Shown here one piece after another: positions 18,976 through 28,652 of a DNA stretch of 30,048 bases (positions within the stretch are counted from its first letter, which is position 1; each line of letters begins with the position of its first letter). Origin of the DNA: Patescibacteria group bacterium (GTDB lineage Bacteria > Patescibacteriota > Microgenomatia > UBA1406 > GWC2-37-13); NCBI GenBank assembly GCA_040881235.1, contig JBBEDP010000040.1, forward strand, positions 1 through 30,048, in the 5' to 3' direction. The translations under genes and the position numbers were made by a program. Under the pieces are notes generated by a model. That model ran no database searches. It worked only from the letters and a program-made list of their open reading frames with translations, and was not told where the DNA came from.

Positions 18976-20561
18976 AACTCTTTTTCAAAAATTATTATTT
19001 TGGGGTGGTCGTAGACAGTAAAGGATTCATCGGCAATGTCATCGTTTATTTCGAAATTAAAATTTCCTATTCGAAAACCCGGATAGGATGTGAATTCAGC
19101 GACTTTTTTAAACCCTAATTCTTCAGAAAATAATCTTTTGTAGTACGATGAACTAATCGGAAAACATATTTTATACATAGAACATGAAGCAAGTTTCTGT
19201 ATAGGGTTATAGAGTCTATTAGAAGCTATAATAATATAATCTGAACGTTCTAATTTGTTTCTAATACTAAACCACTTTTCTTCATTATCAGGCTGGTCAT
19301 AAAGTGTTAATTCTTCATATGTGTAATTTTCTCCATCAAAAATAGGAAGTCGATCATCCCAGTGTTCAACAGCCAAAGTTGAACCTTTTGGAACATTGTT
19401 AATTATCCAGTTTGACGCAGATATCCGCGTGTGTTCTTTTGTATAAATACTTAAAAACAAAAAAGTCCAGATTACAGCCAGGCCAGCCATAATAATTACA
19501 CCTCGCAGGTGTAATTTTTTGGCTTTTAAACTGGTGTAACCAGCTAGAATTACTAAAAATGGGTAGACGGGAAGTATGTAGCGCATAAACTTGACAGCTG
19601 AGTTACCGATAATTAAAAAGTACCAAATATAAAAAACCAAAAATAATAAAATAAACTTATTCTTACCAGAAAATATACGCTGTAAATGTAATGCTTTTGA
19701 TTTGAATAAAAACCATAAGCCTAAAATAGATAAAATACTAATTACTGGGCCAAGTCCCCATAAAAATATATTTTTTAAGTAATGCCAATAGGGGATGGTT
19801 CCTACATATTGTAGAGTATATGGAAAAACATAAGGGTTGCTGTTTAGTTCTAATTGAAGTTTAATATCAACAATAAATTTTGAGTAATTTATATATGCAA
19901 AAGGCATAAAGGTAAAGGTAAAAAGAAATAAGTAAAAAGTAAAAAGAAATAAGTCAGTAAGCCTTTTTTTGCTTTTATAAAAAACAATGATTAATATCAA
20001 GGGAATATAGATTATTGCTGTAAATTTGGACGTTATTGCAGCGGCAAGTGCAATTGAAATGAAGAGAAGTCTTTTTCTACTTGACTTATGTAGATATAAA
20101 AGGGAAGCGTAAAATAAAAGAGTTATAAAAAAATTTAAAAAAGTATCAACAATAAAAAAATGGGAGTTTTGTATCGGAAAGAATGCTACTGTATACAAAA
20201 ATGCTGAAAATAAGGCCACTTCTTCCTTTTTAAAAATAATAATTGCAATCTTGTAAATAAGAAAGATAACTCCAACATCTGCTAAAACAGACAAAAATCT
20301 TCCAAGGTACAGCATTTCCCCATAAAAAGAGTAACTTGTAGAAAAAACAGAGTCTAGAATTTGTCCGGTTCCCTTTAATAAGTAGATTGGAAGAGATCCG
20401 TAGTTAAAAAATTCCGGATTTAAATTTTCAAAAAAATGAATCTTATCAGCAACCATCATTAGCATTCGTTCATCTGGATGCAGATGAGAACCTTGGTCCC
20501 AATTAATTCCTAGAATTCGTAGTAAAAATCCTAAAATAATAATGATTGAGATTTTCCACAT
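18972..20561 (-). CDS. ArnT/PMT-like GT-C glycosyltransferase (LHPDER subfamily)
   Basis: WDQGSHLHPDER, FNYGSLP, IQNSHFFIVD, AAAITSKF, KFMRYILP, EHWDDRLP and ESFTVYDHP; 4-bp overlap with the next gene. Confidence 0.85.
   Translation of the reverse strand: MWKISIIIILGFLLRILGINWDQGSHLHPDERMLMMVADKIHFFENLNPEFFNYGSLPIYLLKGTGQILDSVFSTSYSFYGEMLYLGRFLSVLADVGVIFLIYKIAIIIFKKEEVALFSAFLYTVAFFPIQNSHFFIVDTFLNFFITLLFYASLLYLHKSSRKRLLFISIALAAAITSKFTAIIYIPLILIIVFYKSKKRLTDLFLFTFYLFLFTFTFMPFAYINYSKFIVDIKLQLELNSNPYVFPYTLQYVGTIPYWHYLKNIFLWGLGPVISILSILGLWFLFKSKALHLQRIFSGKNKFILLFLVFYIWYFLIIGNSAVKFMRYILPVYPFLVILAGYTSLKAKKLHLRGVIIMAGLAVIWTFLFLSIYTKEHTRISASNWIINNVPKGSTLAVEHWDDRLPIFDGENYTYEELTLYDQPDNEEKWFSIRNKLERSDYIIIASNRLYNPIQKLASCSMYKICFPISSSYYKRLFSEELGFKKVAEFTSYPGFRIGNFNFEINDDIADESFTVYDHPKIIIFEKEL
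19494..19516. repeat. Perfect 10-3-10 palindrome inside a CDS
   Basis: AATTACACCT-CGC-AGGTGTAATT, encoding KLHLRGVI on the minus strand. Confidence 0.8.
19915..19956. repeat. Six-unit period-7 array inside a CDS
   Basis: aaggtaa aaagaaa taagtaa aaagtaa aaagaaa taagtca; G recurs every 7 bp from 19918 to 19953; encodes DLFLFTFYLFLFTF. Confidence 0.75.
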
Positions 20562-26241: not shown

Positions 26242-27063
26242 ATGCTAAGAATAAAAATCCCTTTTGATAAAAATAAAATAATTAACTCATTCTTAAAGAT
26301 TAAAAAACGGCTGAGATTTGTAATCAGTACATTACTACTTAGCGCTCTTATGCTTTTTTCAACCTTTTTTCTTTTTGATAAAGCGTGGGTATTTATTCCA
26401 ATTCTTGGACTAGCAGCATATGCGTTTACATACTTTTCAATAATAGAAGGGATTAAAAAGTCAGAGTGGCTAACTCTTTTTATACTTCCTGTTTTTTTTA
26501 CGATATCTTTTTACCTTTTTTACTTTTTATTTCCTGTGAGGTGGCTTACTAGGCTCCCTTTTGTGTTAATTTATGGAGTATCAATTTACGCTATGTTTTT
26601 GACCTCAAATATATTGAATGTTGGAGTAGAGAAGAGTCTCCAATTATACAGGGCGGCATATTCAGTAAATTACTTTTATCAAACTGTAATTGTGTTTTTG
26701 TTTTCTAATATTTTATTCTCATTTAAAATTAATTATTTAGTAAATGCTTTGGGGTTGGGGATTGTAGTGTTTCCTTTGGCAGTTCAGCTACTATGGAGTA
26801 TAAAACTCGATATTGTATTGGAAAAGACCCTATATCTATACGCAATTCTTATAAGCATGATTATTGCGCAAATTGCTTTAATAGCCTCATTTTTGCCTCT
26901 CACAGCCTCTATATCAGCTCTTTTAGTCACATCCTCATACTATTGCCTATCAGGTTTAATAAATGCTTATTTGGACAATAGGCTTTTTAAACAGACAATA
27001 AGGGAATATTTATTTGTGTGGCTATTTGTAATTATTACAGCTACGCTTACAATAGGATTTTAA
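26242..27063 (+). CDS. Conserved-looking multi-pass membrane protein of unknown function
   Basis: 273 aa with about 8-9 hydrophobic helices, LFILPVFFT and SLQLYRAA motifs; operonic with yebC. Confidence 0.7.
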   Translation: MLRIKIPFDKNKIINSFLKIKKRLRFVISTLLLSALMLFSTFFLFDKAWVFIPILGLAAYAFTYFSIIEGIKKSEWLTLFILPVFFTISFYLFYFLFPVRWLTRLPFVLIYGVSIYAMFLTSNILNVGVEKSLQLYRAAYSVNYFYQTVIVFLFSNILFSFKINYLVNALGLGIVVFPLAVQLLWSIKLDIVLEKTLYLYAILISMIIAQIALIASFLPLTASISALLVTSSYYCLSGLINAYLDNRLFKQTIREYLFVWLFVIITATLTIGF

Positions 27064-27243
27064 TGGGATACGTAGAAAGTGGAGGAGAGGGGAAGGTAAA
27101 ATTATAAAATTATTCATAAGTGACGGACGTGAATAATAGACCTATAGTCTAATTTAATTAAAACTATAGGGTATTAACTGAAGCTAAAAAAAGAATATTT
27201 AATTTAATTGTAGCCATGCTTAATGCGCAAGCCAAATATAATA

Positions 27244-27455
27244 TTTAGACTATTACTACGCTCTAAAGTTAGTTCCATCAATTTTACCGCATGTGGATAA
27301 CATTATAAAATAGCCTCAATATTATCAATTTAGACTATTACAACAGTCTAAATTAAGCCAATATATAGAACTATATCATTTGCACTGGTATTTAAACATA
27401 AGTAGATAATAACTAGCTTTGAATTTGCTTATTTAGAACTATAGAAGGCTCTAAA
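27244..27455. repeat. Three TTTAGA-N12-TCTAAA palindromic sites
   Basis: 27244-27267, 27329-27352 and 27432-27455, all with a 12-nt spacer. Confidence 0.85.
27292..27300 (-). promoter_or_regulatory. Perfect DnaA box (TTATCCACA)
   Basis: TGTGGATAA on the + strand. The match is exact; function is unproven. Confidence 0.45.
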
Positions 27456-27662
27456 TTAAACGACACCAATGTGCGAGAGAATAGTGCTTTTACTACTTGT
27501 TTATTTATAGCGTTTTTAAAGGTTTACTTACAATATAAGTGATCTAATTTAAGTTTTAATAAGAAAGAGTGAGGACGAGTACACTCCCTTATATGTATAT
27601 ATGATCCAAATATGAAGTAAGGAAAAAATGAGAGACAAGCAGGTAAAGAGTAGAATTGATAA

Positions 27663-27692
27663 GACGTCGTAAATTGTATCTTTTACGACGTC
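27663..27692. repeat. Perfect 11-8-11 inverted repeat (dif/lox-like geometry or terminator hairpin)
   Basis: GACGTCGTAAA-TTGTATCT-TTTACGACGTC. Confidence 0.85.
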
Positions 27693-27902
27693 AAGCGTGC
27701 TCACTTCCAGAGAATAGTGTAAATTCTATATAAATCATTTTTTGTTATTTTACTTAATTCTTGTTTCTTTCTTCTTACTTCTACTCTTAATTATCTCCTT
27801 ATTTTCCCCTTTTCTCAGATTCCTCTCATTTTGCTTAAATCCCCCATTTTACATAATGAATTATCTTATTATGACAATCTAAATACGATTATCCCCCATT
27901 TT

Positions 27903-28652
27903 TCAGCCTCGGTTTCCGCCTTTTTGCCAATTTACTTTTTTAAAGAAAGGCTTATACATTGGATCTTTAAGTCCAACATGAAGTTTAGAAAGTTCGTCTT
28001 TGCCTGGATTTGCGTTTTTAAAATCTATGAAGTTTAAGCCTGAAGCTATAGCTATTGGTGTTTGTTCCGAGCCTTCACCCATAACTAAGACCGCAGCAGT
28101 TGCAAGTGCATCTGCAATATTTGAAGTTGATACTTCTAAAGTTCTACCGAATAAATCAGGTGTTCCAATATAGTTTTTCATAGCTAAGAAACCGCTGTGG
28201 GCTATAGCAACACCAATCGTACCCCAACGAAGTGGGATAATTCGACTGTCTGTAATAATGACTCCAACTTTATTAAGGTTGAACTTCTTTTTTAGGTAAT
28301 TTCGAAGCTTATTGGCTGTTTTTTGAGGGTTTTTAGGCCAAAGAGTATAGTAGCCAGCGCTATTTGACTCATCTATACCAGCTCCTGGAATTAAAATGTT
28401 ATTTTTCATAGTAAGTCCAAGAGAATTTTTCTTTAAGACTGATGGTATATACAGTTCGGCTTCTTGTTTAACAAGCTCGTTTTTATCAATGGTTCCGATT
28501 TTAACTACAGCGCCTTCACAAAGAGATACAATTTTAGAAGTAAAAACGATGACGGATTCTTCTTTAAGTGATTTTATGTATTTATCAATTAACTTAAAGA
28601 GCGTAATTTTTTTTGGAGTTATTATTTCTGTTTTAAGAGCAACAATTTTCAT
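27903..28652 (-). CDS. CofE-family gamma-glutamyl ligase (putative folate-metabolism type)
   Basis: TSKIVSLCEG, AGIDESN, GVIITDS, PLRWG, DLFGR and ADALATAAVLVMGEGSEQTP; ATGA-coupled to folC. Confidence 0.88.
   Translation of the reverse strand: MKIVALKTEIITPKKITLFKLIDKYIKSLKEESVIVFTSKIVSLCEGAVVKIGTIDKNELVKQEAELYIPSVLKKNSLGLTMKNNILIPGAGIDESNSAGYYTLWPKNPQKTANKLRNYLKKKFNLNKVGVIITDSRIIPLRWGTIGVAIAHSGFLAMKNYIGTPDLFGRTLEVSTSNIADALATAAVLVMGEGSEQTPIAIASGLNFIDFKNANPGKDELSKLHVGLKDPMYKPFFKKVNWQKGGNRG

Follow-up and report, generated by a model that had tools for sequence, protein, structure and literature searches.

The window, i.e., the whole stretch of DNA analyzed here, measures 30,048 bases and represents one complete contig (C40) of a 480,057-base assembly (108 contigs, 77.6% complete). 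Two convergent genes, encoding a DUF5656 membrane protein and a CofE-like gamma-glutamyl ligase, are separated by an intergenic gap of 839 nt (27064-27902), which houses a perfect inverted repeat located 600 nt from the gene end on one side and 211 nt from that on the other (Table 1). A first-pass annotation of this DNA had reported the repeat as an 11-8-11 structure and as a candidate non-canonical dif site, and its sequence was confirmed. The repeat occurs once in the window and, in answer to the question of its uniqueness raised at that time, once in the entire assembly, where it ranks among the three strongest perfect hairpins. When 100 copies of the window were generated under a first-order Markov model, 22 contained a perfect 11-bp inverted repeat with a spacer of 3-10 nt by chance, and none did so if at least five G:C pairs were required; the palindrome by itself is only moderately unusual, and the case presented below rests on conservation.

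Table 1. Features of the intergenic region and its neighboring genes in the 30,048-base window.
Feature	Sequence	Position	Strand	Remarks
DUF5656 membrane-protein gene		26242..27063	+	Conserved left neighbor, points toward the site; basis: Pfam, flank survey
Non-coding left spacer		27064..27663	+	600 nt; cross-genus conserved blocks, always on the left-arm side; alignment of 16 genomes
Block in left spacer	GGAGGAGAGGGGAA	27081-27094		
Block in left spacer	ACGGACGTGAATA	27123-27135		
Block in left spacer	CCTATAGT-N14-ACTATAGG	27141-27170		
Three repeated units in left spacer	TTTAGA-N12-TCTAAA	27244, 27329, 27432		
Perfect DnaA box	TTATCCACA	27292..27300	-	Only perfect one in the window
Perfect inverted repeat (11-8-11)	GACGTCGTAAA-TTGTATCT-TTTACGACGTC	27663-27692		Basis: sequence
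28-bp dif-type core (11-6-11)	ACGTCGTAAAT-TGTATC-TTTTACGACGT	27664..27691	.	Basis: conservation among relatives
Left arm	ACGTCGTAAAT	27664..27674	.	Variable arm class-wide (ACGTCGYAYAA types)
6-bp central (crossover) region	TGTATC	27675..27680	.	First T and last C fixed, middle four vary
Right arm	TTTTACGACGT	27681..27691	.	Almost constant in matching families of the class
CofE-like gamma-glutamyl ligase gene		27903..28652	-	Right neighbor

The gap was found to contain neither a tRNA nor a credible small open reading frame, and the surrounding region at 27 kb (26500-28500) returned no Rfam match at E-values up to 1. An 11-bp stem with a minimum free energy of about -21 and -19 kcal/mol was predicted for 81-nt stretches (z -2.7 and -3.4). 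No U-tract is present beside the repeat on either strand, in line with the first-pass remark that a good one was missing on the + side, and a terminator scan of the region yielded no terminator-like site. Elsewhere in this genome a recurrent hairpin was observed that carries a CCTCGCAGG core between A- and T-tracts, e.g., AAAAAATTACACCTCGCAGGTGTAATTTTTTG (window 19494-19516; G000 C96:6787-6819 and C29:5777-5801), and which looks like the ordinary bidirectional terminator type of this organism.

The 839-nt gap was compared with 40 relatives by means of BLAST, which revealed the 28-mer at 27664-27691 at 93-100% identity in 29 of 36 high-quality relatives, representing many genera and two families, with about one copy per genome. 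The same-genus genome G001 matched over the entire gap, at 68% identity, while most of the other relatives matched the 28-mer alone (a few also matched short stretches elsewhere in the gap) and the immediate flanks of the 28-mer diverge. The 11-bp arms as originally delimited form a real repeat, though their outermost G:C pair is not conserved among relatives and falls outside the conserved 28-bp unit. An order-wide search of 223 genomes with a 10-8-10 pattern, allowing up to two mismatches, returned matches in 189 genomes, nearly always as exactly one copy (129 of the 146 high-quality genomes; 164/188, 23/25 and 1/9 genomes in families f1, f2 and f3, respectively), and the reversed pattern, which served as a control, gave about zero matches. 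Genera that seemingly lack the site possess variants instead (G007 and G026). Conservation, which had been suggested as a check on the original proposal, thus extends in single copy across the order.

The manner in which the 28-mer varies is equally informative. Its arms are essentially invariant in the order, and such arm changes as were seen are mostly uncompensated, e.g., the single changes ..ACGAAGT, ..ACGACAT and ..ACGTCGT; in a folded stem, arm changes would give C.A, T.T and G.A mismatches. The innermost base of the left arm is T or A, and positions T12, C17 and T18 are fixed, while positions 13-16 are free (GTAT, ATAT, GAAT, GTAC, GCAT, ACAC, GGAG and GAAG were recorded). Several genomes harbor a perfect 11-6-11 form with arms ACGTCGTAAAA and TTTTACGACGT. 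Among other families of the class one arm remains TTTTACGACGT and the other is represented by ACGTCGTACAA, ATGTCGTATAA or ACGTCGCACAA, and the inner half of this variable arm is similar to that of the E. coli XerC arm (..CGCATAA). Invariant arms flanking a drifting centre are the pattern expected of a putative recombinase core site, not of an RNA stem-loop, because the arms would be read by a protein, while the centre would need only to match that of the partner copy.

Searches with canonical dif patterns (proteobacterial, firmicute, E. coli, B. subtilis and XerD-arm) returned nothing convincing in the source genome or in relatives G073 and G072, and hence no canonical competitor for the dif role was encountered in these three genomes. 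The absence of a canonical XerD arm, which had already been noted at the repeat, thus holds for all three; the XerD-arm consensus TTATGTHAANT matches the site at 5 of 11 positions. In two relatives with fragmented assemblies the site lies less than 100 bases from a contig end (G004:C27:69-96; G005:C33:18-48), which could reflect assembly breaks due to population variation or insertions at the site.

Xer homologs and FtsK, whose presence it had been proposed to verify, were both found: the source genome and every relative examined possess two tyrosine-recombinase genes and one FtsK. The first recombinase, here designated type 1 (contig C74, L001:37-897, in the source genome), consists of about 300-327 residues and has XerD and XerC as its best family matches, albeit below the equivalog cut-offs; its E-value is 2e-69 for XerD, with weaker scores for XerS (1e-39) and XerH (4e-15). 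When aligned to E. coli XerD it exhibits all six catalytic residues (R, K, H-x-x-R, H and Y). The type-1 gene is linked to the 28-mer, at a distance of 3.9 kb in G417 (a complete genome from another family), 4.9 kb in G072, 16.8 kb in G086, 19.2 kb in G006 and 40.5 kb in G073. In 13 of 14 genomes of sister families this distance is 0.2-3.5 kb, and in those that were checked (G231, G313, G390 and G233) the site precedes the type-1 xer gene by about 190-270 nt. In G086, the type-1 gene is a 736-aa open frame (G086:C1:885568-887361; L147:88-2295, minus strand) whose catalytic domain is split by ~420 additional in-frame residues, which may constitute an intein; this genome returned three tyrosine-recombinase family matches, two of which are the halves of the interrupted gene.

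The second paralogue (type 2) is about 290-300 aa in length (L002:1147-2028, contig C88 of G000, in the source genome), has XerA as its best match among solved structures, and is encoded 2-5 kb from dnaA in G072, G073, G086 and G006, and about 90 kb from it in G417. In all six genomes of the order its catalytic Tyr is replaced by Phe (STERFLNL); furthermore, a His is replaced by Asn class-wide, an Arg by Lys in two of the six genomes, and the protein is truncated in G073. The Tyr is retained in 15 genomes from other families. These replacements suggest that only type 1 would be able to cut DNA in this order, although binding by type 2, in the role of a silent partner, is still conceivable. It is likely that a single recombinase species, type 1, performs all catalysis, since the only other tyrosine recombinase is devoid of its nucleophile in this order, and such an arrangement would fit the near-identical arms as well as the homomeric enzyme of the first-pass proposal. 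The idea that the Tyr-to-Phe replacement tracks arm symmetry was rejected: family f12 has the same symmetric site yet retains the Tyr, and G026 (f3, same order) has asymmetric arms yet carries Phe. No consistent occurrence of a ACGTCGTAAA half-site near either xer gene was detected in this order.

The FtsK proteins of the relatives (713-736 aa) are continuous and end in a gamma domain. The source assembly differs in that the FtsK motor (651 aa) and the gamma domain are divided by an in-frame TGA, with the latter continuing in the same frame (C18:4027-4216 of G000; L003:1006-1197, minus strand); erroneous sequencing, a genuine nonsense mutation or read-through could account for this. Furthermore, G073 encodes a stand-alone FtsK-gamma-like domain in a 59-aa open frame (G073:C1:214512-214679) some 20 kb from the dif-type site, with the full-length FtsK encoded separately at 515 kb.

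Chromosome polarity was analyzed in long stretches of four relatives, i.e., the complete genome of G073 (928,688 bp), an 804-kb contig of G072, 400 kb of G006 and 260 kb of G086. An unbiased k-mer screen of G073 yielded AGGGGAG de novo, with 45 copies on the leading strand versus 6 on the lagging strand and a bias that is alike for coding and template strands. In each of the four genomes, the strand on which this word predominates changes at the site. Left of the site, the top and bottom strands carry 23 and 0 copies in G006, 10 and 2 in G086, 20 and 1 in G073, and 9 and 0 in G072; right of it, the corresponding counts are 1 and 17 in G006 and 0 and 18 in G086, while in G073 the word lies on the bottom strand until 892 kb, close to the skew minimum (896 kb) and dnaA (908 kb). 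The cumulative maximum of the word is 0.85 kb from the site in G006, and its minimum in G072 is at dnaA. All words were also ranked under two models, one with a switch at the site and the other with a switch at the antipode of the origin. The former returned AGGGGAG as the best 7-mer (198 toward versus 24 away, z 11.7), with AGGGGAGA also among the top words (90 to 5), while the best z under the latter was 6.7. In the site-to-antipode segment of G073, AGGGGAG occurs twice on the top strand versus 31 times on the bottom strand, and base composition there is slightly G-rich on top; the polarity of the word is therefore no by-product of skew or gene strand. On the contig under study, the word GGGGA gives counts of 18 to 4 on the left-hand side of the site, compared with 0 to 4 on the right-hand side. 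The word (T)AGGGGAG(A) is accordingly regarded as a candidate KOPS-like, FtsK-guiding word that converges on the site.

Classical dif sites are located at the skew switch. In the first-pass annotation the repeat had likewise been placed at such a switch, and the cumulative GC skew of the window does peak near 27-27.5 kb, where genes turn convergent; an argument drawn from one 30-kb contig carries little weight, and what stands of this claim is the local peak together with a switch of the polar word and of gene orientation, as the site is not at the global GC-skew maximum in complete relatives. The cumulative GC skew of G073 reaches its maximum at 424 kb, diametrically opposite the minimum, and the site is situated at 195 kb, where strong positive skew becomes weak; an abrupt weakening at the site is also seen in G086. 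The orientation-corrected skew of G073 is weakly positive from the site to 440 kb and keeps the same sign, and its gene-orientation curve peaks at 160-260 kb, near the site. In G072, whose skew behaves like that of G086, the site coincides with a local skew maximum only, and in G006 the skew climbs for a further ~45 kb beyond the site before leveling off; a clean GC-skew peak at the site was found in none of G006, G073 and G086. The distance between site and dnaA amounts to 23-34% of the chromosome in five relatives. The resulting skew (G073:C1, G072:C1 and G086:C1) has three phases, being strong from origin to site, weak from site to antipode, and strong in the opposite sense back to the origin, and in the middle quarter genes and polar word point against the inferred direction of replication. 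Word polarity and gene orientation thus track the site, while mutational skew tracks the antipode.

Among relatives, the left side of the 28-mer is syntenic, with the DUF5656 gene facing the site across a spacer that, according to the alignment of 16 genomes, measures 600-850 nt across genera and contains GGAGAGGGGAG-type words and two to four TTTAGA-N12-TCTAAA units. The right-hand neighbor varies by genus, being an aminotransferase, a polysaccharide deacetylase, TGT, ABC-2, FemAB or a response regulator in relatives. The DnaA box recurs in other genera about 370-500 nt left of the site, and 414-741 nt left of it in families f26, f11 and f14; G073, whose genome has only six perfect boxes, devotes one of them to the counterpart of this box, and a further one is at dnaA. 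The left block faces the short, origin-proximal arm in all four genomes examined, and is mostly absent from sister families, where the site persists. Since gene, motif-bearing spacer and DnaA box are retained on this side, the site could be part of a larger element, with accessory sequences of the cer/psi type providing one possible analogy. The notion that the DnaA-box block represents an origin was rejected, as both the polar word and the GC skew show a polarity of terminus rather than origin type there, and it is dnaA that coincides with the skew minimum.

Family 28-mers were also identified on ten IMG/VR phage contigs (L192-L201, 7-48 kb), where the agreement extends to the two outer positions, which had been left open in the pattern used for searching. 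Contig L198 belongs to a tailed phage with terminase and portal genes, while L200, L196 and L201 carry genes for a helicase, a Sak4-like protein and a RecE-like exonuclease, an element that was seen in three metagenomes. A search confined to tyrosine recombinases detected none in the five phage records inspected, of which four have a completeness of 96% or more. Mobile elements that would exploit the Xer machinery of their host show such a pattern.

Taken together, these observations make it very probable that the 28-mer (27664-27691) serves as chromosomal dif site, where a Xer recombinase would unlink fused sister chromosomes, in this lineage of uncultured, ultra-small bacteria of the CPR/Microgenomatia type. 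In the proposed mechanism, FtsK at the septum would pump replicated DNA in the direction set by (T)AGGGGAG(A), which it presumably reads, until the site is reached; a XerD-like tyrosine recombinase, occupying both of the near-identical 11-bp arms, would then cut the 28-mer and exchange strands across the 6-bp centre, by which chromosome dimers would be resolved. Of the properties that characterize dif, the 11-6-11 layout, a single conserved copy with diverging flanks, convergence of a polar word and an intact cognate Xer in the genome were all found, while a position at the GC-skew maximum opposite the origin and a match to the bacterial dif consensus or XerD arm were not. The off-maximum position, the lack of a canonical XerD arm, the syntenic left flank, with its hint of a larger element, and the TGA that splits FtsK in the source assembly count against the dif assignment. 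The first-pass proposal of a non-canonical dif site for a homomeric tyrosine recombinase is nonetheless supported by conservation, by the polar word, by xer linkage, by the Tyr-less second paralogue and by integrase-less phages that carry family sites.

Other explanations were considered, and an RNA hairpin is the least plausible of these, whether as an intrinsic terminator that serves both of the convergent genes or as the 3' end of some unannotated RNA. A stable 11-bp stem between convergent genes is what such a reading would predict, but there is no U-tract, terminator call or Rfam match, the repeat is hundreds of nucleotides removed from both gene ends, and the apparent terminators of this genome have A/T-tracts. 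Refutation of the dif proposal had been tied, in part, to RNA 3' ends at the hairpin in combination with a variable loop and compensatory stem changes; instead, the loop is conserved (T12, C17 and T18 are invariant) and arm changes mostly lack compensation, and the terminator and RNA readings were consequently rejected as having next to no likelihood. The site might alternatively be bound by some other dimeric DNA-binding protein as part of a larger non-coding element (DnaA box, TTTAGA-N12-TCTAAA and ACGGACGTGAATA), acting as a fork barrier or pause site, or as a DnaA-linked control locus. The conserved blocks and perfect DnaA box that accompany the site across genera, the box found in three other families, and the abrupt weakening of GC skew at the site in G073 and G086 are consistent with this idea. 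Yet an 11-6-11 unit with a free 4-bp centre is the core layout of a tyrosine recombinase, a xer gene is linked to the site class-wide, integrase-less phages carry the 28-mer alone, and the site persists in sister families from which the left block is mostly missing, and such an element is considered improbable.

There is similarly little likelihood that this is a Xer-type site whose main role is other than dimer resolution, e.g., an attB for phages or islands or, in sister families, an autoregulatory operator of xer. In favor of such a role, integrase-less phages and a Prim-Pol primase island carry family sites, and the site of sister families precedes the type-1 xer gene. However, the site is fully conserved in the present family even though the xer gene is 4-40 kb away, genome-wide convergence of the polar word on the site would be left unexplained, and such elements, where known, make use of dif for the very reason that it is dif.

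Few systems of chromosome maintenance are as conserved as Xer/dif, and dif has been employed as a computational marker of the replication terminus. No description of dif for Patescibacteria/CPR was found in the searchable literature. The present analysis offers a testable dif sequence for a whole order, together with related class-wide forms, and it adds a candidate FtsK-guiding word and what is likely to be a single-recombinase system based on a XerD-like enzyme, as well as evidence that CPR phages may exploit the site. A more tentative possibility, which we regard as rather less likely than its absence, is that chromosome polarity in this lineage is uncoupled from the meeting point of replication forks: dif, polar word and gene orientation would set arms of ~1:3, served by a single XerD-like recombinase, with the skew peaking opposite the origin, and a quarter of the chromosome would therefore be read and pumped against the direction of replication. 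The catalytically dead Xer encoded by dnaA and the DnaA-box block by dif might then hint at a link between initiation and dimer resolution. If real, the off-terminus position would run counter to the rule by which dif, word polarity, gene orientation and fork convergence fall together, and would affect skew-based inference of origin and terminus in uncultured genomes.

The kind of system to which the site would belong is well known, while its near-symmetric arms and off-centre position on the chromosome are unusual. The 28 bp of the site, with two 11-bp arms and a 6-bp centre, follow the layout given in PMC5357621. This layout is shared with the XerCD/dif system and its FtsK/KOPS partners in E. 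coli and with CodV/RipX-dif and SRS in B. subtilis, as are the one copy per chromosome, a XerD/XerC-type recombinase, an FtsK gamma domain and a G-rich polar word that converges on the site; the centre is TGTATC here versus TGTATA in E. coli. Differences from XerCD/dif include the absence of the canonical XerD arm (TTATGTTAAAT), both arms being alike and resembling a XerC arm, the presence of only one catalytically intact recombinase, and a site that is off the GC-skew maximum. Furthermore, the residues named for FtsK contact in E. coli XerD are RQ..QQ (PMC5357621), whereas type 1 exhibits RE..EK.

The XerS/difSL and XerH/difH systems employ a single recombinase whose gene is linked to the site (PMC5357621). 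Those of streptococci and lactococci (XerS) and of Helicobacter and Campylobacter (XerH) resemble the present one in their near-symmetric arms, inner AAAA/TTTT runs, FtsK dependence (presumed for the present system) and linkage of site to recombinase gene, the site being directly upstream in sister families here. They differ in the length of the enzyme (~355 aa, as opposed to about 300-327 aa for the XerD-like type 1, which is no sequence relative), in a 31-bp site with an 11-bp centre rather than 28 bp with a 6-bp centre, and in the 4-40 kb that separate gene and site in the present family. Archaeal XerA/dif similarly combines a single short Xer with a conserved, fairly symmetric 28-bp site; XerA is reported to act without FtsK (PMC5357621), unlike the present system, where an FtsK gamma domain and a polar word are present. 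On the basis of layout, FtsK, polar word and XerD-like enzyme the system is placed with XerCD/dif, while its probable single active enzyme, symmetric arms and linkage resemble XerS, XerH and XerA.

Sites of mobile elements provide further parallels. Plasmid cer has an 11-8-11 layout of 30 bp, and cer and psi consist of a core plus accessory sequences on the XerC side (PMC5357621). The likeness lies in a conserved non-coding block of a few hundred bp on one fixed side of the core; here, by way of difference, the block measures about 600-850 nt, is chromosomal, and bears a DnaA box and TTTAGA-N12-TCTAAA units. The IMEX of Vibrio (CTX, VGJ and TLC phages) similarly possess a dif-like site while encoding no recombinase themselves (for the phages described here, the search covered the tyrosine type); those phages are filamentous, whereas the present set includes at least one tailed phage, the rest being phage contigs of ~40 kb or smaller. 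Second copies of the dif family were also observed on two bacterial contigs, each with a different centre. The copy of G041 (C34:17160-17187; L188:8001-8028) reads ACGTCGCATAA-TACTTA-TTTTACGACGT, is located between divergent blocks of small open reading frames, and adjoins a Prim-Pol/AAA primase, a ThsB-TIR defence gene and a hydrolase, surroundings that likely represent a mobile island. The copy of G165 (C6:26901-26928; L189) is situated near genes for a DNA methylase and an HTH_8 protein.
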